Under the pieces are notes generated by a model. The model made no database searches and was not told the origin of the DNA. It saw nothing but the letters and a program-made list of their open reading frames with translations. Made by a program: the position numbers and the translations under genes. A stretch of DNA of 17,094 nt. Origin: Candidatus Heimdallarchaeota archaeon. GTDB lineage: Archaea; Asgardarchaeota; Heimdallarchaeia; JABLTI01. Within the stretch, counting starts at the first letter, position 1, and the number at the start of each line of letters is the position of its first letter. Of the stretch, positions 465 through 17,094 are shown in pieces. The stretch covers positions 1 through 17,094 of the forward strand of contig DXJV01000097.1 of assembly GCA_019056785.1 (NCBI GenBank), read 5' to 3'.

Positions 465-3170
465 TTGGCAAAGAAATATGTCTACTCCTTCGAAGAAGGA
501 TCAGCAAAAATGAAGGACCTCCTGGGAGGAAAGGGAGCAAATCTGGCAGAAATGACAGGATTAGGCATCCCGGTGCCACCAGGGTTCACGATAACAACAG
601 AAGCATGTATAGAATACCTGAAAAACAATAACACATTTCCAAAGGGAATGATGGAAGAAGTGGAAAAAGCCCTAGCAGCCTTAGAAAAGAAGATGGGCAA
701 GAAATTAGGAGATAAAAAAGACCCGCTACTCGTAAGTGTAAGAAGTGGAGCAAAAATTTCCATGCCAGGCATGATGGACACAGTCTTAAATCTCGGCCTG
801 AATGATGAGGCGGTGCAAGGGCTGGCGAAAGTCTCTGGCGACGAGCGGTTCGCCTATGATTCATATCGCCGTTTTATCATGATGTTTAGCGACATTGTGA
901 AGGGGCTCGACCGCAAGAAATTCGACGAAGTGTTCGATGCCATGAAGAAAAAGCGCGGCGTGAAGAATGATACCGACTTAACCGCAGACGACTTGAAAGA
1001 AGTGGTCAAGCAGTTTAAAGAACTGTATAAGAAATTATCAGGCTCTGAGTTCCCACAAGACCCCAAAGAACAATTGATAGATGCCATTCATGCAGTTTTC
1101 AGCTCATGGAATAATGAGCGAGCCATTAATTACCGAAACCATGAGGGCATTCCACATGATATTGGGACAGCAGTTAACGTGCAAAGCATGGTCTATGGAA
1201 ATCTCGGAGAGAACAGCGCCACAGGAGTGGCCTTCACACGAAACCCATCAACAGGAGAGAAGAAGCGCTTCGGAGAATACTTGCCACAGGCACAAGGAGA
1301 AGATGTCGTAGCAGGAGTAAGAACGCCACACCCAATAGAACAATTGAAAGAAGAAATGCCGGAAATGTACAAAGTGTTCGATGAAATATGCGAGAAACTC
1401 GAGCGACACTACAAAGACGTGCAGGACATAGAGTTCACAATACAGCAAGGAAAGTTCTACATGCTGCAAACACGCACAGGAAAACGCACAGGAGTAGCAG
1501 CAGCAAAAATAGCTTACGACCTAGTGCAAGAGGGATTGATCGATAAGAAAACAGCAGTAAGGAGAATAACACCAAGAGATGTGGAGAACACACTCTTCCC
1601 ACAAATAGACTGGCACAATCCAAAACAAAAAACCTACCTGGACGAAAACGGAAAAGAAGTGAAAGCAGAAGAGTTCGCAAAAGGACTGCCAGCAAGCCCA
1701 GGAGCAGCAGCAGGAAAAGTATACTTCACAGCAGATAAAGCAAAAGAAGAAGCAGACAAAGGAGAAAAAGTAATACTAGCAGCAGAAGAAACAACACCAG
1801 AAGACTTCCACGGAATGGCAGCAGCAGAAGGAATAATAACAGAAAGAGGAGGAATGACATCACACGCAGCAGTAGTGTCAAGACAAATAGGAACAACATG
1901 CATAGCAGGAGCAGGAGATGTCTCAGGAATGAGCATACACGAAGGAAAAATACACGGACAAAACGGCATAAAAATAGCAGAAGGAGAATGGGTATCACTA
2001 GACGGATTCGAAGCAAGAGCATACAAAGGAAAACTGCCGCTGAAAAAAGCAGAACTGTCAAAAGAAATGGAAACAATACTAAAATGGGCAGACGAAATAG
2101 CAACAAAAGAAGGAAAAGGATTCCACGTGAGAACAAACGCAGACAAACCAGACCAAACAAAACAAGCAATAGCATACGGAGCAAAAGGAGTGGGACTGAC
2201 AAGAACAGAACACATGTTCATGGAGAAAAATAGACTGCCAATAGTGCAGAAAATGATACTGGCAAGAAACGAACAAGAAAAAAGAAGAAAATACGTGTTC
2301 GAACTACTGCCATTCCAAAGAGAAGACTTCGAAGGAATATTCAGAGCAGCAAAAGGATACCCAGTAATAATACGCCTCATCGACCCACCACTGCACGAAT
2401 TCCTGCCAGACGAAATAGAACTGCTGGAAAAAATATGGAAAAATAACCTGCCAAACGACTCAGAAGAAGCAGTGCTATTACAGAGCGTACGGGCAACGGC
2501 GGAGAGCAACCCAATGCTTGGCTTCCGTGGTGTACGGTTGTGCCTCGCCATTCCTGAGCTGATCGAAATGCAAGCCAGAGCTATTCTCGAGGCAGCCTGC
2601 AATGTCCAGAAGGAAGGACAAGAAGTCTACCCGGAGATAATGGTCCCAGTCGTGGGCTTTGCAAAAGAATTCGAACTGGCAAAGGAAATCATACTCAAAA
2701 CAAAAGAAGAAGTGGAAAAAGAAAAGAAAACCAAACTGAAAAAGTTCAAAGTAGGAACAATGATAGAAGTACCACGAGCAGCACTGACAGCAGAAGAAAT
2801 AGCAAAAGCAGGAGCGGAATTCTATTCAGTGGGCAGTAATGACATGACCCAAATGCTTCTAGGCTTCAGCCGTGATGACGCCGGTAAGTTCATTCCTCTC
2901 TATCTCAAGCTCGGTATTCTCGAAGAGGATCCCTTTGTTTCTCTTGAGCAAGCCGGTGTTGGCAAGATTCTCCGCATTATGGTTGAAGGTGCTCATAAAG
3001 GTAATCCTGACATCGAGATTGGTATTTGCGGCGAACAAGGTGGTGAGCCTAAGTCCATTGACTTCTGTTATCGTGCTGGCTTTGATTATGTCAGCTGCTC
3101 TCCTTTGCGTGTTCCTGTTGCTCGTCTGGCTGCTGCTCATGCAGTCATCAACAACGGTCCTCGCAAATAA
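465..3170 (+). CDS. ppdK: Pyruvate, phosphate dikinase (901 aa, TTG start)
   Basis: Hallmark PPDK motifs in the correct order: LLGGKGANLAEM, VSVRSGAxxSMPGMMDTVLNLGLN, GEDVVAGVRTP, QDIEFTI..YMLQTRTGKRT, phospho-His GGMTSHAAVV (H467, nt 1863-1865), RTEHMF, DPPLHEFLP, NPMLGFRG, GTMIEVPRA, GFSRDD, GICGE. Confidence 0.98.
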   Translation: MAKKYVYSFEEGSAKMKDLLGGKGANLAEMTGLGIPVPPGFTITTEACIEYLKNNNTFPKGMMEEVEKALAALEKKMGKKLGDKKDPLLVSVRSGAKISMPGMMDTVLNLGLNDEAVQGLAKVSGDERFAYDSYRRFIMMFSDIVKGLDRKKFDEVFDAMKKKRGVKNDTDLTADDLKEVVKQFKELYKKLSGSEFPQDPKEQLIDAIHAVFSSWNNERAINYRNHEGIPHDIGTAVNVQSMVYGNLGENSATGVAFTRNPSTGEKKRFGEYLPQAQGEDVVAGVRTPHPIEQLKEEMPEMYKVFDEICEKLERHYKDVQDIEFTIQQGKFYMLQTRTGKRTGVAAAKIAYDLVQEGLIDKKTAVRRITPRDVENTLFPQIDWHNPKQKTYLDENGKEVKAEEFAKGLPASPGAAAGKVYFTADKAKEEADKGEKVILAAEETTPEDFHGMAAAEGIITERGGMTSHAAVVSRQIGTTCIAGAGDVSGMSIHEGKIHGQNGIKIAEGEWVSLDGFEARAYKGKLPLKKAELSKEMETILKWADEIATKEGKGFHVRTNADKPDQTKQAIAYGAKGVGLTRTEHMFMEKNRLPIVQKMILARNEQEKRRKYVFELLPFQREDFEGIFRAAKGYPVIIRLIDPPLHEFLPDEIELLEKIWKNNLPNDSEEAVLLQSVRATAESNPMLGFRGVRLCLAIPELIEMQARAILEAACNVQKEGQEVYPEIMVPVVGFAKEFELAKEIILKTKEEVEKEKKTKLKKFKVGTMIEVPRAALTAEEIAKAGAEFYSVGSNDMTQMLLGFSRDDAGKFIPLYLKLGILEEDPFVSLEQAGVGKILRIMVEGAHKGNPDIEIGICGEQGGEPKSIDFCYRAGFDYVSCSPLRVPVARLAAAHAVINNGPRK

Positions 3171-3360: not shown

Positions 3361-5787
3361 TTACCTCTCTTTAATTTCCCTTTTATCAATCCTTGAGCCT
3401 TTATCTGCAATGACTATATTGCTTCGTATTTTGCTCTTTTTGTCATTTAATTGATGTTCTTTGGAGAGCCAAGAAAGTACTTGCTCTTTCTGATGTTGTG
3501 TCGCTACCCGGATAAAAAGCTCTCCAAATTCAAAGTCAAAATAGTCACAAAGAAGTTGAAGATTTAATAATCGTTGAATAATGCTTTTTTTAGCATAAAA
3601 AAATTTGGAAGTATAATGAGAACAATCTGAACAAGAAACCAATATTCGAATAGGTTTGTTTGAAGAATTAATTCGAAATACTACCAAGTCTAATTCCCGA
3701 GTGTGTTGACCAATTAAAACAGCAACATGTCGAATAACTATATCTCCTTGAGCTAAAAATTGTCGGTACACATATTTTTCAAAAGCCGTGCCTTGGTTTT
3801 CATCGCTAATAAGCATCTTTACACCAATGGCACGGAATCGTTTGCCCCAAAAATTTTTGTGAGAAAGTAATAGCTTGAGATCTTTCGCTATTTCAGTTAA
3901 TAATTTGAGATTGAAAGTTTGACGACGACGTTGAAATTGACGTTTATAATTGGTAGGCAGGATCTCTCCAGTAGTTATCTTCTTGATACGTTCAGTAATA
4001 TGAAAACGCTCTTCCTCTACAATAATGGCTGTTCCTTTACAAAGTTCTTGGTGTAGTCTATCTAATGCTGAAGGGTTATGAAGAGGAATCTTTCCATAGC
4101 GATATAAACTTGCCCCCGGCGCAAGAGCAGTAACTTGTAAATAACGGAAAAGAGATAATAGATTGAGCATAGTAATTTCCATGTAATTAGCATAACTCTT
4201 AATTTCATCTTTTGTTGCTTCTTTAGTTCTTTTCCAATGTTCTATAATCGCTAAACCGTCATGAAAGGATCTTTTCTCATTGAATTGCTGTTTGAGCTCA
4301 TTAGCCAATAGCAATTGATGATAATAATTTAATTTCTCAAAAAAACCGCCGGAAGTTAAGAAATCATAAAGATCAGTCAAGTCAAGTAAAATAACTGAAA
4401 AACGTGAAGCATAGCTGATCCATTTTTGTTTATTTAATTTCCAATCTACAAAAATAACTGGTACTCCATAATTTGGAATCATCTTTCGAAATTTCACACC
4501 TTTAGCAATGGCAGCTTGTAATATTCTTGTTTTCTCAATGCCAAAGCAGCTTTTTAGTTCAATTGAATATCTCTCAAGAGAATTTTCAGGAGATAAATTA
4601 GTGACATACCAATCTACAGATTTAAACGTCGTACCATCAAGGTTTGATAAGAAAGCTTCTTGTAAGAAAAGGCGGCAAGTGTTCTGAGGGGCTGAAATAA
4701 GTAATGTTTGAAATAATTTTTTAACAAGAAAATCAAAACTCTTGTTATAATGGTGTTTGTTAAAGCGATCCACTCGAACAACAGGAATTGAGTATCCTTG
4801 TTGTGCCATTTTTCTGTAAAGCGACAATGTCTTTTGATAGACCTGCTTGTCTTTGGTAGCTCCTTGATTATAAGACATATTTTCATAAAAAGCTAAACCA
4901 GTAAAGGTACGATAGTCGCCGCTTTTCTTAACATTCGCAATAAAATTCTTGAAAATTTCTGGTTTGTCTTCATTTGCCCAAAGAATCTTTACACAAGACT
5001 CTTTAGTCATTGAGACAGATGAGTTACAAGTAAGAGAATTTTTAATTCGAGCAATAGTTGAAATTGTTACTTGATCATCTCGAACAAGAACAATCCTTCT
5101 CTCTTTCCCTACCACTAAATTAGCGACAGCATTTGGGATTTGAATGCCGGTCTTTGCTTTTCTACAATCAAATTCTACAGCAAGAAAGGGATCGTCAAAA
5201 ATTGCTATTCGTTTTCCATAGTAGTCTTTAAAACATATTATCGGTTGAAGTTCATCTCTGTGTTTTAAATATTGAAGAAAGCTTGTCAAAACAGCCTTTT
5301 TGTACCTTTGAGAAATACCTTTTTTTCCAGGTTGTATTATCGGTTGTAATTTTTGAAGGCTATACCCCTCCTGTGCAAATGACAATATTGTTCTGCAAAG
5401 ATCTGTTAATGGCAATTCCCCATGTGGTATAATTAATTCAATTTCCTTTGAGAACAATTGAGAAATTTTTAAGCTTGAAATTATTATTTTATCTCTCTTT
5501 CGATAATTCTCTCTAACTTTTCTTATGCATAAAGTGATGTGTTCTTCTTCACCAAAGACACCCTCTTCCGATTTAATTCTTATTTTACCTGAAAATGTTT
5601 GCTCCTCATTATACGCTATTTTGATATAATTTGTTAGAAAATTGGATTCAATAACTTTGGAAGAGCCAACTTTCGATTGGATAACAACCATTCCATTACC
5701 CCATAATTCGGTAATTCTATTATTATTTGTAAATATTCGAAGGCATTGCTTTTTCTCGTCTAAATTATGATTGTTGGTTTTTATCAT
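3361..5787 (-). CDS. 808-aa protein with two PD-(D/E)xK restriction-endonuclease-like modules
   Basis: Long AT-rich ORF. Internal motif SVDWYV...YSIELKS (D...ExK, nt about 4545-4620). C-terminal Mrr/HJR-like pattern GTAFEKYVYRQFLAQG...RELDLVV...ILVSCSD (nt about 3625-3795), in which ExK is replaced. The N-terminal half is unrecognised. Confidence 0.6.
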   Translation of the reverse strand: MIKTNNHNLDEKKQCLRIFTNNNRITELWGNGMVVIQSKVGSSKVIESNFLTNYIKIAYNEEQTFSGKIRIKSEEGVFGEEEHITLCIRKVRENYRKRDKIIISSLKISQLFSKEIELIIPHGELPLTDLCRTILSFAQEGYSLQKLQPIIQPGKKGISQRYKKAVLTSFLQYLKHRDELQPIICFKDYYGKRIAIFDDPFLAVEFDCRKAKTGIQIPNAVANLVVGKERRIVLVRDDQVTISTIARIKNSLTCNSSVSMTKESCVKILWANEDKPEIFKNFIANVKKSGDYRTFTGLAFYENMSYNQGATKDKQVYQKTLSLYRKMAQQGYSIPVVRVDRFNKHHYNKSFDFLVKKLFQTLLISAPQNTCRLFLQEAFLSNLDGTTFKSVDWYVTNLSPENSLERYSIELKSCFGIEKTRILQAAIAKGVKFRKMIPNYGVPVIFVDWKLNKQKWISYASRFSVILLDLTDLYDFLTSGGFFEKLNYYHQLLLANELKQQFNEKRSFHDGLAIIEHWKRTKEATKDEIKSYANYMEITMLNLLSLFRYLQVTALAPGASLYRYGKIPLHNPSALDRLHQELCKGTAIIVEEERFHITERIKKITTGEILPTNYKRQFQRRRQTFNLKLLTEIAKDLKLLLSHKNFWGKRFRAIGVKMLISDENQGTAFEKYVYRQFLAQGDIVIRHVAVLIGQHTRELDLVVFRINSSNKPIRILVSCSDCSHYTSKFFYAKKSIIQRLLNLQLLCDYFDFEFGELFIRVATQHQKEQVLSWLSKEHQLNDKKSKIRSNIVIADKGSRIDKREIKER

Positions 5788-6204: not shown

Positions 6205-7878
6205 TTAAGTCTTATCAATTTTATAGATAAAGAATGTCTCAAGAAAATCGTGCAAAACGTAATTACAAATACGGCTCGATTTTTCCCATTTGTTTTTTAG
6301 ATGGAAAAAACTCACAACTCTATCTATAAACTCAGGGGTTCTAAAGCTTATACTAACATAATTTCCATATAAAGGCTTAAGATTTGGGACAATTTCTAAC
6401 AGTTCTTTAGAGAGGGTTAAAGGAAGTTTTATTGTGTGATTTTTTATCCTAAAAAAGGAAAGTGAATGCTGTTCAAGAAAGTCCATCAATCCTTGTTTCT
6501 TAGAGTAAAAAATTTGAGTTATCCGTGCTATAACTTTAAGCGTTGGGGATATTCTTCCTGCTTCATATGTTGCAATAGTTTCATATGAGACATTTAATAA
6601 CTGTGCGAGGGTTTTTCTGGATAATCCTTCTTGTTCTCTTAATCTTTTTATTAATACCTCTGCATTACAAACAATGATTTTTTCTGAGAGAAAAGAGAAG
6701 TCAAGATACTTTCCATTGATAATTCTCTTCTTATTTAGTCCTTGAAACCGTAATTTTATTAAGCGACGCTTTTTTCCTCTGGGCTTCAATTCCTTATTAG
6801 TTAATTCAAGTAATTGCATTTTTTTCTGTGGGTGTAAACTAAGAATGATTGCTTGTAGTTTTGTGCGTGAACCAGCATAGATATATATTGTGAAAGTTTT
6901 TCCTGCTTTCCTTAATGAGTAAGCAACATTAAAATTCTGTAAATACTGTTCAAGGTCAACGACTAGTTTTTCTGATATTGAGGAGAAAGTAACTGTTTTA
7001 TGAAAACTGCCATCTGCATCAAACAATCCCCCCCAATAAGCAATCCTTAAAGGTTTGTAAACCCCCTTCCGGAGAAAAATCGGCTCTTGTAAAGATTCAT
7101 ATTTCCTTCCAATATGATGGTTTGTTAGAAAATTAATTAACCGAATTACCCATTTACTATTTAGAATCATATAATAATAGTTATTACTAACACCTTTTCT
7201 TAATTCTCCATTAATATTAAAAAGTTCAAAACAAAAAGCCAAAAGCTGCTTTATTTGATCTTTAGAATAGTCAACGATATGTAATTGATGTTTTGTGAGA
7301 TGGCCATCACCATCGATGATCCCTAAGAGATAAACGAGTTTTTCAGAAAGGACGAGAGGAATAGTTGAACGTTCACTTTTAGCTGACTGGATGATAATTT
7401 TTTGTTCATCGGTTGTTTGCTTTTTCAGCGTACACCAAGCGGTTGGATTCAGTCGGGCAAAAGGAAGCGGAAGGCTCTCCCGGTCGAGGTAGCGTTCCAG
7501 GCGTTTTTTCCAGCTGCTAATAGCAGGGTCGTTTAGTGCTGACCGGTAAAAGTAGTTACGAGCAGCTTCAGCTGTTGCCCAGAGCGTTCCCTCGAGCGAT
7601 TCTTTCACGCTGGGGTAATGCTCCAACGGTAAGAATGGCATTCGTGTCAAAATTCTTGCCTGCCCCCCAGAGGATTTGTTTGTATTTTTAATGAAGTCTA
7701 TTTTACGAATCAATATCCCATAGAAATTTTGCAGCGGGTGCTGGCTGTAGAAGGCATGAATTTTAGGTTCTGTCTCCTGAAGAAGATCATTTAAAGTACG
7801 CCACTCTGCTGCTTCTTGTGGCTCAAAGTCAAGTAGCAAGGGGTCAGTCTGCCAATTCAGGAGGGGTTGGAGTGTCAT
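6205..7878 (-). CDS. Free-standing double-motif LAGLIDADG endonuclease-like protein with an XRE/Cro HTH, copy 1 (557 aa)
   Basis: LAGLIDADG helices YLLGIIDGDG (nt about 7303-7332) and YWGGLFDADG (about 7009-7038). XRE HTH LIKRLREQEGLSRKTLAQLLNVSYETIATYEAGRISP. No intein splicing motifs were seen. Confidence 0.85.
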   Translation of the reverse strand: MTLQPLLNWQTDPLLLDFEPQEAAEWRTLNDLLQETEPKIHAFYSQHPLQNFYGILIRKIDFIKNTNKSSGGQARILTRMPFLPLEHYPSVKESLEGTLWATAEAARNYFYRSALNDPAISSWKKRLERYLDRESLPLPFARLNPTAWCTLKKQTTDEQKIIIQSAKSERSTIPLVLSEKLVYLLGIIDGDGHLTKHQLHIVDYSKDQIKQLLAFCFELFNINGELRKGVSNNYYYMILNSKWVIRLINFLTNHHIGRKYESLQEPIFLRKGVYKPLRIAYWGGLFDADGSFHKTVTFSSISEKLVVDLEQYLQNFNVAYSLRKAGKTFTIYIYAGSRTKLQAIILSLHPQKKMQLLELTNKELKPRGKKRRLIKLRFQGLNKKRIINGKYLDFSFLSEKIIVCNAEVLIKRLREQEGLSRKTLAQLLNVSYETIATYEAGRISPTLKVIARITQIFYSKKQGLMDFLEQHSLSFFRIKNHTIKLPLTLSKELLEIVPNLKPLYGNYVSISFRTPEFIDRVVSFFHLKNKWEKSSRICNYVLHDFLETFFIYKIDKT

Positions 7879-8325: not shown

Positions 8326-9966
8326 TTATTTTACTGTTTGATAATTTCCATAGGTGGTTAAAAATGTCCAGAGAACATAATTGTATAACCGGTTTATTGC
8401 GGGGTCGGTAATTTTCAGCTCGAAAAAGTCATTCAATTTGGTTGTTACTTCCTGGTCGTTGGTTTCGAGGCTTATGGCATGATTGGCTCCTGGGCGCAAG
8501 TATTGCATTAGTTCTAAACATTGTTTGGATGGTCGCAATGGTAGTTTGACTTTTTTGACCGACCCGAACCTGCAAAGGTTGTTCTTGTGGAGAAACGGCA
8601 TTAGGTTCATGTTTTGCTTGCTGGCAAGCATTTGGACAAGTTGTAGTGGTGGATTTGTCCTGTTCTTTTCATAGGAGGTAAGAGTAAAATAAGAGAGCTG
8701 TAGGCTATTTGCCAGTTCTGTTCGCGACCAATTGTTTTCCCATCTAAATTGTTTGAGTAAATCTCCCATCTGTAAAACGGTGATTCGTTGGTCCATAAGG
8801 CTGAAGTCAAAAAAGCCTTCTGAAGTCAAGTTTGCTGTTCTTATTCCTTGAAATGCTTCTATCTCTCCATTTCGCCTTCGAGAAAGGAGAGTTTGTAATT
8901 CTTTTTTCTTTTCAGGATGCCAGGAACCTATTGCTTCAGCAACTTTCTGCCGGCTCCCAGAATAAACGTACATAGAGATTCCGGGGAATGTCTCCTTCAC
9001 ACGGAACTTCACTTCTAGTTCGGAAAAATATTGCTGCAAATCACTGATCACTTTTTCAGATATCGACGAGAAAACCATTGTTCTTCGGTAGGACGCGTCT
9101 GCATCGAACAGCCCCCGCCAATAGGCTCCACGAAAGTGTGACCATCGTTGCTCCCGGAGAAAGAGCGGTTCCCGTAACGAATGATATTTCCTCCCGAAGG
9201 TATGGCCTGTTAAAAAGTTAACAAACCGGACAACCCATTTACTATTGATAAAGAGGAGAAAATAGTTGCCGGTTTTGCCTTCTTTGAAATCCCCCTTCAC
9301 CTGGAATAATTCTTGGCAAAAGGATAAGAGCTGCTTTACTTGCTCTCTTGAATAATCCACGATGTGAAACATGTGCTTTTTAAGGTGCCCGTCGCCATCG
9401 ATGATTCCTAGAATATAGACGAGTTTTTCCGTCAAAACAAGGGGAATAGTGGAGCGCTCACCTTTCGCTGATTGGAGGAGGATCTTTTGTTCTTTTGTTA
9501 TTCGCTTGTTGAGCAGGTGCCAGCTTTGGCTCTGAATCCGGACGAGAACGAGGGGGATGCTCTTTCGTTCGAGGTAGCGTTCCAGACGTTTTTTCCAGCT
9601 GGTAATTGATGCATCGTTTAACGCCGACTTGTAGAAATAGTTGCGCCCTGCTTCTGCTGTTGCCCAAAGAGTCGCTTCGAGACTTTCTTTGAGCTCCCGG
9701 TAATAATCTAAGGGTAAAAAGGGCATTCTCGTAAGGATTCGAACGCGTTCGTTTGAGGAGGGATTATTTGCTTGGTTTACGAAATCGATTTTCCTTACTA
9801 CCACTCCAAAGATATTCCAGAGCGGTTGCTGGGAGTACTTCTGCTTGAGGTCAGCATCACCATTCTGTAGCAGGTCGTTTAATGTTCGCCAGCTTGCCAC
9901 TGGCACAGGTTTAAGGTCCAATAGCAAAGGATCCGTTTGCCAGTTCAGTGGAGGAGGTGAGGTCAT
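8326..9966 (-). CDS. Free-standing double-motif LAGLIDADG endonuclease-like protein with an XRE/Cro HTH, copy 2 (546 aa; start re-called at 9966 instead of 10176)
   Basis: YILGIIDGDG (nt about 9388-9417), YWRGLFDADA (about 9094-9123) and HTH LLKQFRWENNWSRTELANSLQLSYFTLTSYEKNRTNP. MTSPPPLNWQTDPLLLD aligns with the N-terminus of copy 1. Both starts read tgagATGAC, and both have the same 24-bp element upstream. Confidence 0.85.
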   Translation of the reverse strand: MTSPPPLNWQTDPLLLDLKPVPVASWRTLNDLLQNGDADLKQKYSQQPLWNIFGVVVRKIDFVNQANNPSSNERVRILTRMPFLPLDYYRELKESLEATLWATAEAGRNYFYKSALNDASITSWKKRLERYLERKSIPLVLVRIQSQSWHLLNKRITKEQKILLQSAKGERSTIPLVLTEKLVYILGIIDGDGHLKKHMFHIVDYSREQVKQLLSFCQELFQVKGDFKEGKTGNYFLLFINSKWVVRFVNFLTGHTFGRKYHSLREPLFLREQRWSHFRGAYWRGLFDADASYRRTMVFSSISEKVISDLQQYFSELEVKFRVKETFPGISMYVYSGSRQKVAEAIGSWHPEKKKELQTLLSRRRNGEIEAFQGIRTANLTSEGFFDFSLMDQRITVLQMGDLLKQFRWENNWSRTELANSLQLSYFTLTSYEKNRTNPPLQLVQMLASKQNMNLMPFLHKNNLCRFGSVKKVKLPLRPSKQCLELMQYLRPGANHAISLETNDQEVTTKLNDFFELKITDPAINRLYNYVLWTFLTTYGNYQTVK

Positions 9967-9989
9967 CTCATAGAGTAGTCTCTTTTTTC

Positions 9990-10013
9990 CTAAATAAACT
10001 CCTAGCTCAAAAA
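9990..10013 (-). promoter_or_regulatory. Conserved 24-bp promoter/operator element, copy 2
   Basis: Minus strand TTTTTGAGCTAGGAGTTTATTTAG, ending 23 nt before the ATG at 9966. Confidence 0.7.
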
Positions 10014-10498
10014 GGGAGTGAAAAAACCGTTTGTTCCAAATCGGTGCCATCAAAATCCTAACATTCTCATGAACACTTAGGAGTGAGCATCTGGCTGGTG
10101 AGGAATTATTAGTCATGGCAAAGATTTTTTGTGTAGAAATAATATCATTAGGTTTTAATTCAATAAACTGATACAATATTACAGAAGAGATTCCCTCTTT
10201 TGAATTTACACGAAGAGAGATCTTTATTTTTCCATTAACAAAGATTTGATAGTTTATTCCATTTTTTTTAAGGGAAAAACTGTCAGATTCTTTCCCATTA
10301 ATAATTGGTCTCTTTCAAATTGCTCATTCTTGTATTCACTTGTTTTTATCACCTTTACTTCGATAAACCGCTTAAAGTAAACCATGTGATTCCTATGCTT
10401 ATCTATCAGTGAAAAAATGGTTCTTTTAAGGAGGAGGGGGATTTATTTAGTGTTTTTATGAGCTTATTATAGGAAAGTAAAAAAGGAAAAGAAGAATC

Positions 10499-11931: not shown

Positions 11932-14900
11932 TTGCTTTTGGTTAGCACTGATAAATTAACAGCGTCGTCTAAAATAACGACAGATGCTCCTTCTTCGCAG
12001 AAGTTTGTAACTTCTTTTAATTCTCATCGCCCACGAACGATCACAGAAATTTTGGCGCATTTTCCACTGTTAACCTCCGGGCAACTGCCCAGAGAGTTGC
12101 TGGAGAAACTCTTCGAACAAAAAGGCTCCTTTGGTGTTCTCTTGAGAGCTAATGGCGCATTTTCCACTCGTTCTCACACTCCTTCTTTTAGTTCACGGGC
12201 AACTTCTCAAGCGGAGGAGCTTTCGCTTGACATGCAAATAGCTTTAATTGCTGCCTTGAATGCCAGTCGGGTCGAAGACCGTACAACAGTGCTCTTAGTT
12301 AACACTACTCGTGAAGCTAAACGTGCTATAGCCTTTCTTCTCCAAGCTTTTGGTCCCTTGTGCCGAATTTCTTCTACGAACAGCAGTCTCTCCACTTTTG
12401 TTCCTTGTGACCTGTTTTCTGATGTCAGGATTGTTATAGGCACCTATCGTTCTTTTCTCCGAAAACTGCTTACTGACGACCTTCCTTCTTTTCAAACGGT
12501 TGTTCTTGTTCACCCTCCTTATTGGTCAAGTTCCAGGATGTTTGCTACTCTGCTCTTGGATATCCTTCTCCTTCGGCTTCGTTTTACTGCTAAGCAGCGG
12601 TCCTCAGTAAGAACGATCTTTGTTTGCCGTTCTGTTGCTACTAAGCCAGCAAACGAAGTGAGAAATAATGCCGAAGAGCTTTCCCTGTGGGAATTCTTCA
12701 TCACTTGGCTGAATGTTCCTTTTTTTCTCTTAAAACACTCGAGTGAATCGCCAGCCACCACTTGCCACTCGTCACTCTCTTCGTTTTTTTCTGCTCCTTT
12801 CCCAAGAACCCCGGCTGATAGTTTTGCGCCATTATTTTTTCCGGCCATTTTTTCATCTGAGCGGTCATTTTCCCAACTTGTCCTTCTTCCAATGCTTGCT
12901 GTCCTCTTTCGTCGTCACCTCTCCCGGAAACAGCTCTTTTTTGAGCTGAAGCAAAGCATTGTTTATCGTCTGTTTCGAGCTCGAAAGGCAACCAGGCGAC
13001 TGCTCATTAATGCTCCCGACCGTCTTTCCCTCGAGAAAACTTTTGAGAAATTGCTCTATAAAGCGTTTCACTTATTGAGCCGCCCTTCCTTAGGTGGGTT
13101 CCGTTTGATTATTCCTTCCCATAATCGTTATACTCTTTCCAAATTCGCTGAAGAGTTTCTTATTGCTTTAACATATAGCCGGGCTAACTTGGCTTCGATT
13201 ATTGCGTTCCTACTCTTTCTCTGTTCTTCCGCTCGAGAAGGCACGCTTAATTGGGAAGCATTGGTCCGTTATCTTGGTTCTTCTTTTCCTTTAGAGAGCA
13301 ACTTCCACGCAAGCGCTTCCTTTGATCAGCTGGCTGCCTTTATTCAAACTATCCGCTTACAGCTGGCTGCCCTGACCCCGGAGGAGCGCTCCTCCCCTTC
13401 TCGTGCGCTTGCTTCTTCGAAGAAGCTTGCCGCTTTATTTCGCTCGAAAAACTTTTCCTTCCAGGATTTCCAATTTGTTCAACTGGTCGCTGCTATTGGC
13501 TCTCAATTTTCTGATGAACCTCTCCTTTCTCAAACGCTTGGTCTCATTAAAACACAGATGCTGAAAAGCTTCTTTTCTTCCAATACCCCTCGTAAAAAGT
13601 ATTCGCTTTATAATCGTCAACGGGCAAAGGAGCTGCTCCTTTCTGAGCTTCTGCATTCTCCTACGGCTCGAACTGCTACTGATCTGGCGCTTACTCTTCA
13701 GCTGGACAAGAAATTGGTTGACCGGCTTCTTCGATCGTTGGCGCAGAAAGGCGATGCTCTCATCTCTTCTCAGACGGTTGTCACGGCTTCGGGTCGCAGG
13801 AGTTATTTCGGTCTTTCCTCCTCCTTCCCCTTTTACTTTAAGCATTCTTGCAGCGAATGCCAATTCTACTCTCCTGTGGGAAATTGCACTGTCTACCAAA
13901 CGCTCGGTCGTTTTGCTCCGCATAAAGTCCCCATACTCTACCGGCAAAGAGCAGAGAGACAGCTTAAGCCTTCTACTGTTGCTTGCTCTCTTTTTCTCCT
14001 AAAAGAATTGCGAAAAGACACTCTTTCACTCGAGGTTTTTGCTTCAAAAACACGGGCGGTTCATTCTTTGACGCCTGAAGGGGTGCTCTTTGAACATCAT
14101 TGTCTTTATTGTTCTGCCTTACTTCCTTCTTTTGGCTCGGACTTTCTTCCAAAGGTGGGAACAAGTGCGCAGAGTTGTCCATCTTGTGGTTCCATTTACA
14201 AATTAACCCGACAGAAACAGAAGCAAAAAGGCAACACTAAGGGGGCTTCAGAAAGTTCTCCGGAAGAGCTTATTTTTGTGAGTTGTTTGGAAAATCGGTT
14301 AAATGCTTTTAATGACCTCTTGTATGACTTGTCCGGACTTTCCTGGGAGCATCTCTGGCGTCAACAAACTTCCTCTTCTTCCCATGGCATGACCATTAGA
14401 ATAGGTGAGCATGTGTCGCTGCAAGGGGAATTTCTAATCGTTGAGAATATCGCTAAAAAGATCTCTGATTTAGACTATCTTTACAGTTCCATTCCTCTTC
14501 CTTCGTCTCTTGTCTCTAAACTCGAGTCTGCGGGAGTAACTGTTCGATTCAATTTTTCGCTCGTTGAAGAAGCTTCTGAATCTTCGGCTGTTGGGAATAA
14601 TAATCTTGTGTCGCCAGAAAGCAATGGTTGTTGTTCACATGACGGGGTGGGTCGAAATCCCTTCAAGAACTCCTCCAGTGCTCAGCAATTAACCCCGGAC
14701 CAATGTCTTGCCTTAAAAGCTCTGCGAATCACCGGGTTATTAACAGCACCCTTCCTACGGGCTAATGTCCTTTCGCGTTGGGCTGTTACCATACAACTCT
14801 TTCCTCTCCTTAGTCGTTATTCTTCTGACGCTCTCGAGGAGCGCTCCCTTCCCCTTCACTCTTTCGAGTGGGAATTCTTGGATGTTCTCTTACGTTCCCG

Positions 14901-15867
14901 TGTTGTTAGCCATGCTTTTACTTTTCGCCTTTGTGAAGGCTTAGCAGGAGCTATCATGTGGTCCTTTCTTAAGGAGGTTTTTGATCGCCACGGCTTGCGG
15001 ATGTTCTCTCGAGTGCGGGACCGTTACGTAAGGGATAAGCTGTTCTTCCCTCATAAACGAACGCTAGCTTATTCCGCAATGAGTGCTCTTGTTAATTTCT
15101 TTCTTTTATTGGTACAGGATCGATTGCAATTGCTTCATCTTGATTTAGCTCTTGGCTGGAAAGGTTCGCCGGGATTAATTCATGGAACAAAGAAAACATC
15201 TGCACTTGACAGCTTGGGCTTCTTTCTTGACTTTATTGATATTATAAAAATCGCTGCTTTCTTGTTCGTTGCTCAGCTGGTGCATGAAGAAGCACTTGGG
15301 TTTGATGATGTTGAAGTGACAATTGGGAGAGCTGGGATCTCATTATATGCTGTTAAACCTTCAGCCATTCGCAAATTAGAGCAGCTTGTGGACCTGTTCT
15401 TTGACCAGGAGGTTTATTATTTGTCAAAAAAGCTCTCTTTAACGGAAGCTTATCGTTTATATACAACTCATTTCTATGACTTGTTGGCAGCTATTGCCGA
15501 ACAACTTAAGAACACTTACTCCTCCTTTCCATCATCAACAGGAGGAGAGGGAACCTTACCATTATCTTCTTGGCTCGAGCGCTGGGAAACCTTGCCGGAA
15601 GAGCAGCGAAAAAAGCTCTTTGAGTCTCTTTATTTATTAGTTTCAAGTATTCCTTGCGTTAACTCTTACTCTCCTTTAAGTTATCTGCCCTCTTCCCTTG
15701 TTGAGCGCCGAGAAAAGCTCCTCAGCTTTTTACCCTCAATCGAGGACTTCCCCGTTAATCTTTCCTGGGAAGAACAGCTCTTGCATAAGAACGGTGTCGC
15801 TAATTTTGTTTCTTTAACTAGAAAATTATCCTGGAGGTTGTTCGAAGATGAAAGGCAAGGAGATTAA
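11932..15867 (+). CDS. Multidomain Cas1-like protein: inactivated Hel308/Ski2-like helicase domain + WH + wHTH + two Cys4 clusters + diverged Cas1 (1311 aa; start TTG 11932 or 11938)
   Basis: Cas1 N-terminal beta-domain pattern at aa about 820-873 (VSLQGEFLIV...ISDLDYLY...LVSKLESAGVTVRF). Cas1 helical-domain motifs: LCEGLAGAIMW (E1002), FSRVR, SALVNF, and GLIHG...FFLDFIDIIK (H1084, D1100, D1103; compare E. coli Cas1 GFVH...FVYDIADIIK). GAGGAG SD at 11924-11929. Confidence 0.8.
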   Translation: MLLVSTDKLTASSKITTDAPSSQKFVTSFNSHRPRTITEILAHFPLLTSGQLPRELLEKLFEQKGSFGVLLRANGAFSTRSHTPSFSSRATSQAEELSLDMQIALIAALNASRVEDRTTVLLVNTTREAKRAIAFLLQAFGPLCRISSTNSSLSTFVPCDLFSDVRIVIGTYRSFLRKLLTDDLPSFQTVVLVHPPYWSSSRMFATLLLDILLLRLRFTAKQRSSVRTIFVCRSVATKPANEVRNNAEELSLWEFFITWLNVPFFLLKHSSESPATTCHSSLSSFFSAPFPRTPADSFAPLFFPAIFSSERSFSQLVLLPMLAVLFRRHLSRKQLFFELKQSIVYRLFRARKATRRLLINAPDRLSLEKTFEKLLYKAFHLLSRPSLGGFRLIIPSHNRYTLSKFAEEFLIALTYSRANLASIIAFLLFLCSSAREGTLNWEALVRYLGSSFPLESNFHASASFDQLAAFIQTIRLQLAALTPEERSSPSRALASSKKLAALFRSKNFSFQDFQFVQLVAAIGSQFSDEPLLSQTLGLIKTQMLKSFFSSNTPRKKYSLYNRQRAKELLLSELLHSPTARTATDLALTLQLDKKLVDRLLRSLAQKGDALISSQTVVTASGRRSYFGLSSSFPFYFKHSCSECQFYSPVGNCTVYQTLGRFAPHKVPILYRQRAERQLKPSTVACSLFLLKELRKDTLSLEVFASKTRAVHSLTPEGVLFEHHCLYCSALLPSFGSDFLPKVGTSAQSCPSCGSIYKLTRQKQKQKGNTKGASESSPEELIFVSCLENRLNAFNDLLYDLSGLSWEHLWRQQTSSSSHGMTIRIGEHVSLQGEFLIVENIAKKISDLDYLYSSIPLPSSLVSKLESAGVTVRFNFSLVEEASESSAVGNNNLVSPESNGCCSHDGVGRNPFKNSSSAQQLTPDQCLALKALRITGLLTAPFLRANVLSRWAVTIQLFPLLSRYSSDALEERSLPLHSFEWEFLDVLLRSRVVSHAFTFRLCEGLAGAIMWSFLKEVFDRHGLRMFSRVRDRYVRDKLFFPHKRTLAYSAMSALVNFFLLLVQDRLQLLHLDLALGWKGSPGLIHGTKKTSALDSLGFFLDFIDIIKIAAFLFVAQLVHEEALGFDDVEVTIGRAGISLYAVKPSAIRKLEQLVDLFFDQEVYYLSKKLSLTEAYRLYTTHFYDLLAAIAEQLKNTYSSFPSSTGGEGTLPLSSWLERWETLPEEQRKKLFESLYLLVSSIPCVNSYSPLSYLPSSLVERREKLLSFLPSIEDFPVNLSWEEQLLHKNGVANFVSLTRKLSWRLFEDERQGD

Positions 15868-17094
15868 TCGTGCAAATATAAATGAACGTTCTCCTCAGGT
15901 GCAAAGGGCGCCAACTGTTGAGCAGAATGGCCAGAATCTTCAAGCCAATCTTTCTTTCTCTTCTCCCTCTTCCTCGCCAAAACTTCCGCCACTAACTTTT
16001 ATCTGTGAGCTTCCTCCATCCGACAACCCTCGAGCAGCTATTTCTTGGTCTGACCCATCACTCTCCTTAAACCTTCTAGGACCTATTCTCGATAAACACT
16101 TCAATAGCCCTCCTTATCTTTTCCAACAGAAAGCTATTCCAAAGGTCATTGCCGGCAGTGACTTGTTACTAACCGCAGGAACCGGGAGCGGCAAAAGTGA
16201 AATTTTCCTTTTGGCTGTCCTTGAATTGCTTCTTCGAGGTGAGATCTCTTCTGCGCTTCTCTTTTATCCCAGCAAGCAATTAGTTCAAGACCAGGAGGTA
16301 CGCCTGGCAAAATATATTCGATGGGTCCGTGCAGAATTAGGTAAAAAGATCACCTTTAGTACTTATACTGGTGACCTCAAACCAAAGTCCATTGAAGGCA
16401 TTGAGCGCGCCAAGCCAGATATCTTGTTAGCAACGTTCGATAAATTATTCTATCGGATTGTTGGTCACAGTTCTATTGTCGCTTCTGCTTGTGCTTCTTT
16501 TCCAGAGGGAAAGGCGAAGAGCAAAAGCCTTTACCAAGAAGCGTTCTTTACTCGGCTTATTACTGCTGGCGTTGTTGTTTTCGATGAAGTGCATGATTAT
16601 TCTGGGTTGATGCTTTCGAATATCCACAACTATTTATTAATCCATAAACAAAAGAATCCTACTTGTCGGATCGTTTTATCTTCTGCCACTCTTCCCAACC
16701 CAGAAGTTTTCCGCGACCGGTTTCTCCCTTCAGCTGAGATCATCTCGGGGCAAGCGCGTCGAGGGCGGCTACAAATTTTATCCGTGGAAAAACAGCACCT
16801 GGATTCATTTCTTAATTATGTTCAAAAGAGCTTGCTTTCTGATATGGAGGATTCTCCCTCAAGTTCTCCTCTTACGCCATCTGCTTCTTCCCCTCAAACT
16901 CAGCGTTTGAAGCCGAACTCCAATCAGAAATGTGCCATTCTCTTTAATGATAATATCAGCGAAAATGAGTCGTTCACTTTCTTGCTGAAAAAAGAGTTGG
17001 CTCAAACCACCGGGCTGCCTCAGGATGCTATGAGCGATTATTCCGCCGCAAAAATAGCTTGTATCCACTCCCAATTGCCCCCCGAACGAAAGCG
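15848..17094 (+). CDS. SF2 DExH-box helicase, YprA/Hrq1/Lhr-like; 3'-partial, runs off the window (absent from the ORF track)
   Basis: My translation from ATG 15848 (GGAGGT SD at 15833-15838; 20-nt overlap with the upstream gene) has no stop to the window end. Motifs: Q-motif PYLFQQKAI, Walker A AGTGSGKS (16175-16198), Ia YPSKQLVQDQ, TYTGD, Ib ATFDKL, II DEVH (16583-16594) followed by DYSG, III SSATLPNP, and HSQL near the edge. Confidence 0.92.
   Translation, partial: MKGKEINRANINERSPQVQRAPTVEQNGQNLQANLSFSSPSSSPKLPPLTFICELPPSDNPRAAISWSDPSLSLNLLGPILDKHFNSPPYLFQQKAIPKVIAGSDLLLTAGTGSGKSEIFLLAVLELLLRGEISSALLFYPSKQLVQDQEVRLAKYIRWVRAELGKKITFSTYTGDLKPKSIEGIERAKPDILLATFDKLFYRIVGHSSIVASACASFPEGKAKSKSLYQEAFFTRLITAGVVVFDEVHDYSGLMLSNIHNYLLIHKQKNPTCRIVLSSATLPNPEVFRDRFLPSAEIISGQARRGRLQILSVEKQHLDSFLNYVQKSLLSDMEDSPSSSPLTPSASSPQTQRLKPNSNQKCAILFNDNISENESFTFLLKKELAQTTGLPQDAMSDYSAAKIACIHSQLPPERK

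Follow-up and report, generated by a model that had tools for sequence, protein, structure and literature searches.

The first ~555 residues of P0001, a protein of 1311 residues with a Cas1-like domain near its C-terminus, appear to be a dead remnant of a Ski2-like/Hel308-type SF2 helicase that is devoid of a RecA2 domain and that probably serves as a static arm, holding DNA or acting as a scaffold. We put the probability of this reading at roughly 65%. P0001 is encoded on the 17,094-nt contig DXJV01000097.1 (assembly GCA_019056785.1) of Candidatus Heimdallarchaeota archaeon, an Asgard archaeon; this contig, analysed over its whole length, is referred to here as the window. The gene (11932..15867, + strand) is an aCas1-type fusion, in which the putative dead helicase module is joined to DNA-binding domains and a Cas1-like integrase.

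The open reading frame at 11932-15867 is a real gene. It contains one stop, which is its own terminator, as compared to 49-89 stops in the other five frames. The start codon is TTG, with a purine-rich, GGAG-like stretch immediately upstream. The coding strand is pyrimidine-rich (AT skew about -0.25, 40% T at third positions) and Leu, Ser and Phe are abundant in the protein. An antisense artefact was considered and excluded, since this is the sole open frame and homologues exist, and since the downstream helicase gene, which has the same codon style, gives solid Pfam matches.

P0001 alone gave no Pfam, NCBIfam or PADLOC match, neither to a helicase nor to a Cas1 model. A word-based homologue search retrieved only P0001 itself, and a scan of the genome collection with the single protein gave no match. 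Scanning with a closer alignment returned three loci, and HMMER, run exhaustively against 1.84 billion representatives, gave a family of 54 proteins, the representatives of which carry no Pfam annotation suggestive of a helicase. Orthologues with 46-52% identity are present in the same Heimdallarchaeota genus. The relatives found in whole genomes are confined to this genus, where they occur in 7 of 10 genomes, some of them with up to 23 matching segments, and the other families of the class covered by the search yielded none. The closest relative is P0007. One subfamily is split into a ~690-residue protein, comprising the N-terminal module and the middle part, and a ~500-residue Cas1 protein that follows it. 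An HMM of residues 55-275 also matched the N-termini of ~1350-residue relatives, namely P0009 (3e-13), P0021, P0040, P0022, P0011 and P0019. Since the N-terminal domain is common to the fused, split and ~1350-residue forms, it is a maintained module.

The label of Cas1, given to P0001 in a sequence-only reading of this DNA, was established by the family profile. When a C-terminal profile of 42 sequences with P0001 as its first row was compared with solved structures, it matched casposase 6opm_A with E=4.1e-10 and Cas1 of A. fulgidus (4n06_A) with E=1.6e-6. PF01867 was matched by 11 of 48 family members, with a best value of 7.2e-12. The Cas1-like catalytic domain (aa ~985-1200; 14884..15531, + strand) carries the tetrad E1002, H1084, D1100 and D1103, which is kept as E/D, H, D and E/D in all 42 sequences; the catalytic residues of E. 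coli Cas1 are E141, H208, D218 and D221 (PMC4046053). Going by the family profile, and not by P0001 alone, the C-terminus is a very divergent Cas1, and the domain is apparently active. No CRISPR array was found in the 17-kb window and no PF01867 match in the 82.5%-complete host genome, while genes for Cas2 and family B polymerase were absent from the window (Pfam) and from the surroundings of the orthologous cassette.

The sequence-only reading had described the stretch 12050-13160, which corresponds to residues 40-410 of P0001, as a series of helicase-like segments in the right order. All of these were found as claimed, at residues 69-79 (Walker A position), 120-129 (motif Ia), 165-175 (Ib), 190-197 (motif II position), 208-217, 228-235 (equivalent of 'SAT'), 246-259 (NAEEL..W..WL), and 321-326 and 400-406 (winged helix). 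A RecA1-like SF2 helicase domain without Walker A and without DExH extends over aa ~60-270 (12109..12741, + strand). It is preceded by an N-terminal leader motif (aa 31-46; 12022..12069, + strand), in which the closest subfamily shows no variation at H32, P34, R35, T36, H43 and P45 and which is modelled with low confidence. The AlphaFold2 model of residues 1-460, built from an alignment of 13 sequences, is of middling confidence (mean pLDDT 60.8, pTM 0.63). In it, strands and helices alternate from ~67 to ~267; a region of low confidence follows at 270-306, and thereafter come helices with a beta hairpin at 393-402.

The top Foldseek matches of this model were all SF2 helicases, with RIG-I, Dicer-2 and Hef first (E ~1e-4), and some F1-ATPase chains were also among the matches. 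In an exhaustive structural search, Ski2-like/Hel308 entries held ranks 1-6 and had the longest alignments, which covered 278-310 residues over RecA1 and the following winged-helix/helical part, as compared to ~170 residues for matches to RecA1 only. Next in line were Lhr (12.7), HamB (12.2), Mtr4 (12.1) and MrfA (11.7), over which the margins of Hel308 were 1-3 Z units. Nearly all of the top 50 structural matches were SF2/SF1 helicase or translocase chains. The RecA1 assignment is thus well supported by structure. The RecA-like fold expected at the N-terminus from the earlier reading is indeed predicted, at ~60-270, with its best matches among SF2 helicases and not in an unrelated family.

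Profiles of the P0001 N-terminus gave no helicase match in a sequence search against solved structures. A Hel308 of the normal kind is present in the host genome (724 aa; DEAD, Helicase_C, HTH_61, domain 4 and HhH domains), and we compared the N-terminal alignment with 15 Hel308 orthologues by hhalign. The resulting alignment was co-linear over 157 columns (P=0.0064) and paired five of the segments with motifs I, Ia, Ib and II of the host Hel308 and with the helix that follows its motif II. A129, T171 and R177 of P0001 were aligned to invariant A81, T121 and R130, respectively, with Ser instead of the Thr in the split subfamily. V193-H194 were paired with V147-H148 of the Hel308 DEVH, and a gap lay opposite its D145/E146. 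What is retained of the RecA1 core is the part aligned with the Hel308 region that begins at motif Ia and ends with the helix behind motif II.

With 13 sequences, the N-domain scored 28.9 against Hel308 RecA1 (P=0.0012), as compared to 11.0 for the reversed control (P=0.66) and at most 17.3 in 30 column shuffles. The same alignment scored 13.4 against Hel308 RecA2 (P=0.33) and 14.8 against RecA1 of the helicase encoded next to P0001, referred to below as the partner helicase (P=0.23). With 24 sequences, spanning four or more subfamilies, the score against Hel308 RecA1 was 36.4 (P=9.1e-5, probability 59%), whereas 30 column shuffles gave at most 13.1 and a Cas1 control gave 13.1 (P=0.46). Hef RecA1 scored 32.3 (P=3.8e-4) and RecA1 of the partner helicase 24.8 (P=0.007) in this comparison. 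Likeness to Hel308 RecA2 was without support by hhalign (P 0.25-0.33). Two relatives also gave sub-threshold matches to PF00270 (20.4 and 14.6 bits, cut-off 26) over the expected positions of the profile. These matches and the hhalign signal together support homology with SF2 RecA1 at the level of sequence as well.

One could argue that the likeness to a helicase is not homology at all, and that a generic Rossmann-like alpha/beta domain happens to be followed by an unrelated winged helix in a model of medium confidence. The mean pLDDT of 60.8 would be in keeping with this, three-layer alpha/beta folds are widespread, F1-ATPase chains did appear among the Foldseek matches, and P0001 itself has no significant sequence match to any helicase model. 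We nevertheless regard coincidence as very improbable, as the profile signal is specific for helicase RecA1, co-linear with the order of the motifs and far above the reversed and shuffled controls. The weak PF00270 matches of the two relatives are independent of it, and the structural matches are drawn almost entirely from SF2/SF1 motors.

Within SF2, Hel308 was the best fit, though by a modest margin and with other families close behind, and to this extent the Hel308/Ski2-type assignment of the sequence-only reading stands: the top of the exhaustive structural search and the strongest profile signal favour it, while its lead over the rest of SF2 is small. A dead remnant of some other SF2 family, either of the YprA/MrfA-like partner through tandem duplication, or of Lhr, DEAH/RHA or Hef/RIG-I/Dicer, seems unlikely. 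Foldseek did rank RIG-I, Dicer and Hef above Hel308, and neither the 1-3 Z units of the structural search nor the P values for Hel308 and Hef (9e-5 versus 4e-4) set Hel308 far apart. However, the first six ranks of the exhaustive search and its longest alignments all belong to Ski2-like/Hel308 entries, whereas the alignment with Hef or Dicer covers RecA1 only and not the domains that follow. A beta-hairpin wing is present in the domain that follows the linker, and this sets it apart from Hef and RIG-I with their helical insertions. As for duplication of the partner, its RecA1 scored worst of the three helicases compared (P=0.23 and 0.007). A separate hhalign comparison of the N-terminus with the partner helicase gave nothing with thin alignments and nothing co-linear with deeper ones.

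The claim that the catalytic residues are missing was borne out. Neither GK[ST]/GKT at the motif I position nor DExH at the motif II position was present in P0001 or in any relative inspected, over four or more subfamilies. In the P0001 family the motif I loop is replaced by a variable, low-confidence insert, and the motif II position of relatives reads F-Y-x-P or F-V-D-P. Seven residues, L109, R113, V123, A129, T149, R177 and L180, are invariant across subfamilies. The invariance of R113, R177 and T149, an Asp kept at the first position of motif II in part of the family, and the partner helicase in every cassette examined might suggest that the module is still an enzyme, either an NTPase or nuclease that relies on unusual residues, or one half of a helicase for which another protein supplies RecA2 in trans. 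This is exceedingly improbable, as the motif I position lacks every type of P-loop, the loop there being variable and of low confidence, and no gene for a RecA2 partner was identified. No SF2 enzyme is known to function without motif I.

Residues 271-309 form a Ser/Pro/Phe-rich linker (12742..12858, + strand) at the place where RecA2 would be. Its pLDDT is below 50 over aa 270-306, it is ~30 residues shorter in the orthologues, and no PF00271 match was obtained in P0001. The stretch that separates RecA1 from the winged helix, only ~40 residues of low confidence, is too short for RecA2, as the sequence-only reading had also noted. The description of the module as 'internally deleted' concerns its history, which we infer. 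If the N-terminal module is a dead helicase remnant, then the loss of motifs I and II and of the second RecA domain makes ATP hydrolysis and translocation impossible, and, its ATP site and second motor domain being lost, its role is probably limited to holding DNA or partner proteins.

Two of the segments claimed earlier fared differently in the model and in the alignment. The 'SAT' equivalent at 228-235 lies on a strand at the expected topological place in the model, but was left unaligned by hhalign. Similarly, NAEEL..W..WL at 246-259 lies on a helix at the expected place, but it too remained unaligned and is found only in P0001 and P0007. A first winged-helix domain (aa 310-404; 12859..13143, + strand) follows RecA1 and the linker in the models and is real. 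It is succeeded by an all-helical domain, possibly ratchet-like (aa 405-555; 13144..13596, + strand), and by a second winged helix-turn-helix (aa 557-632; 13600..13827, + strand). A second model, of residues 296-665 (pLDDT 72.9), confirmed both winged helices and the helical domain at 405-555. Insofar as the model of residues 1-460 is reliable, the winged helix and the helices that open the following domain are placed relative to RecA1 as in Ski2-like helicases. When the winged helix and helical part were analysed alone, Hel308 was the best long Foldseek match, with a weak E of 0.07, and the hhalign comparison with Hel308 was likewise weak (P=0.13). Thus the winged helix that had been predicted after the helicase segment is present, but its specific kinship, and that of the helical part, to domains 3-4 of Hel308 is suggestive only. 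No helix-hairpin-helix domain 5 of the Hel308 kind was identified in P0001.

Beyond the second winged helix lie two four-Cys clusters, which are probable zinc sites (13849..14187, + strand). The first consists of C640, C643, C652 and C685, of which C640 is invariant and C643 and C652 are nearly so in the alignment of aa 296-665, which ends before C685. The second consists of C724, C727, C749 and C752, and its CxxC pairs are present in the family consensus.

The partner gene (15848..17092, + strand) encodes a DEXH helicase of the YprA/MrfA type; it overlaps the end of the P0001 gene and is cut by the contig end, which falls inside it. It matches PF00270 with E=1.2e-22 and its GKS/T and DExH are invariant, so that judged by its motifs it looks active. 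In orthologous loci the partner helicase carries the Zn-binding (DUF1998) domain of MrfA and is followed by a metallophosphoesterase. The helicase was present in the four cassettes read with Pfam, that of the window and those of loci L009, L010 and L011, and it adjoins the Cas1 gene in 10 more. Several defence systems have helicases of the YprA type at their centre (bioRxiv 10.1101/2025.09.15.676423). A complex prediction for the N-terminal module and the partner helicase core, made with the orthologous pair of genome G010, gave a score of 0.00, which speaks neither for nor against an interaction. LAGLIDADG genes were also observed near both the window cassette and the orthologous cassette.

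P0001 fits the known aCas1 family. Asgard archaea have been credited with an 'unprecedented diversity of Cas1 homologs' (Makarova et al. 2020, as quoted in PMC8730458). aCas1-TnpB loci have been described, and aCas1 has been proposed to act as the transposase in a separate family of transposons (Altae-Tran et al. 2023; PMC10691335). P0001 resembles aCas1, as described in the passages quoted, in its Heimdall-group host, its extreme divergence as a Cas1, its independence from CRISPR, with no array found, and the many copies per genome in relatives. In contrast to aCas1-TnpB loci, no TnpB was found in the 17-kb contig or beside the orthologous cassette. The Cas1 family itself is known. In the papers examined, PMC10691335 among them, we found no description of the dead-helicase module.

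Among solved structures, casposases (Cas1-solo group 2, 6opm) are the closest relatives of the P0001 C-terminus, and they share with it a complete tetrad and the lack of Cas2. P0001 differs from them in having no family B polymerase nearby, an N-terminal extension of ~900 residues, and a helicase and a phosphoesterase as partners. In the type I-F Cas1-Cas2/3 complex, a Cas1 integrase physically works with an SF2 helicase-nuclease, and there the helicase is active and fused to Cas2 (PMC12259127). In P0001, on the other hand, the helicase part fused to Cas1 is dead, the live helicase is encoded by a separate gene, and neither Cas2 nor an array accompanies it.

Hel308/Hjm and other Ski2-like proteins (Slh1, Brr2, the helicase-like domain of POLQ, Mtr4) possess Walker A, DExH and RecA2. 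The stub of P0001 is without all three, and therefore it cannot be a motor as Hel308-type helicases are. The C-terminal cassette of Brr2 is an inactive helicase platform in which both RecA domains are kept, and the Sec63/Brl unit consists of winged helix, ratchet and FN3 without any RecA domain. As in these two cases, where they are used for binding or regulation, Ski2-like parts have been retained in P0001 without motor activity. Unlike them, P0001 keeps exactly one RecA domain and has it fused to an integrase.

In Hel308-type helicases the accessory domains, winged helix and helical, line the path of the DNA. The helicase stub of P0001 would most likely hold the DNA without moving along it, or serve as a scaffold, and present a single-stranded tail, a fork or a DNA end to the Cas1-type active site in the same polypeptide. 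The adjacent YprA-like helicase would then unwind the DNA and the metallophosphoesterase would trim it, and together they would constitute the central part of a mobile element or integration module driven by Cas1 and operating without CRISPR, Cas2 or polymerase. As to origin, aCas1 might have been born from the fusion of a Hel308-like fork-repair helicase with a casposase-like integrase, the RecA1/winged-helix/ratchet stub being retained after loss of the motor and still reading a 3' tail or fork junction. P0054 and P0055, which are more distant and have ~165 additional residues behind RecA1, would then be intermediates that retain a remnant of RecA2. We consider this origin quite doubtful. 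If true, however, the stub would, as a protein, take the place of the Cas2 bridge and of end recognition in CRISPR adaptation and casposon integration, and would determine the site, or the DNA ends, at which the integrase works.

The domain map of this tiny family should be useful for annotation, and the module, retained as a structural element across several subfamilies, provides a clean example of a pseudo-enzyme. CRISPR adaptation and casposon transposition both go back to Cas1-type integrases, and how these choose and hold DNA without Cas2 is poorly understood. In the P0001 family, a Cas1 domain that seems active is combined with a motor-less helicase remnant that probably keeps its DNA-facing parts, and this offers a handle on the question.

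The orthologue of the Cas1 fusion protein P0001 at the related locus L010 (G005:C106, 11909-15543, minus strand) was found to be split into two ORFs of 196 aa and 1021 aa, with the break placed exactly at the position of motif II in the dead RecA1 domain. Therefore, this orthologue either carries a frameshift or is in decay. Positions 1-591, where the same contig begins, hold a second, partial N-terminal copy. Among the paralogues of the split form, two of the ~690-aa proteins (G008:C110:39830-41140 and G005:C33:97935-99248) each carry a single in-frame TGA within the match, which could be explained by recoding, by an error in sequencing or by the copy being a pseudogene.

A paralogous split cassette with additional genes was observed at L011 (G005:C84, 117-11082), where a 693-aa N-module protein and a 503-aa Cas1 protein are accompanied by an unknown protein of 257 aa, a 185-aa winged-helix protein and a 781-aa helicase with a Zn-binding domain. 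This cassette is adjoined by genes for a HEAT-repeat protein and a protein with a NERD nuclease domain.

Analysis of the window revealed two genes combining LAGLIDADG and XRE-HTH domains upstream of the cassette, both on the minus strand (6205-7878 and 8326-10176), one of which weakly matched the portion of V-ATPase subunit A that bears the intein. In the related genome G010, the orthologous cassette has another LAGLIDADG gene ~5 kb away, on the plus strand (L009:18774-19901). The 808-aa ORF at 3361-5787 of the window (minus strand) had no match in Pfam, NCBIfam or PADLOC. Genes of the window that lie on the same strand were opposite in base skew, most notably between 465-3170 and 11932-17092. 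The ppdK gene is rich in A, which occupies 46% of its third positions (AT skew +0.28 to +0.48), whereas the Cas1 fusion and helicase genes are rich in T, which occupies 38-40% of theirs (AT skew about -0.25). This contrast suggests differing origins or expression regimes.

In the distant relatives P0054 and P0055, ~165 additional residues (residues ~170-340) separate the RecA1-like domain from the winged helix. The sequence pattern of this insert is strand/helix-like, and it may be a remnant of RecA2. A PD-(D/E)XK nuclease domain (PF12705) was detected in 3 of the 48 family members in alignment A3, with a best E-value of 1.8e-8. Thus, nuclease fusions also occur among the forms of this Cas1 family.
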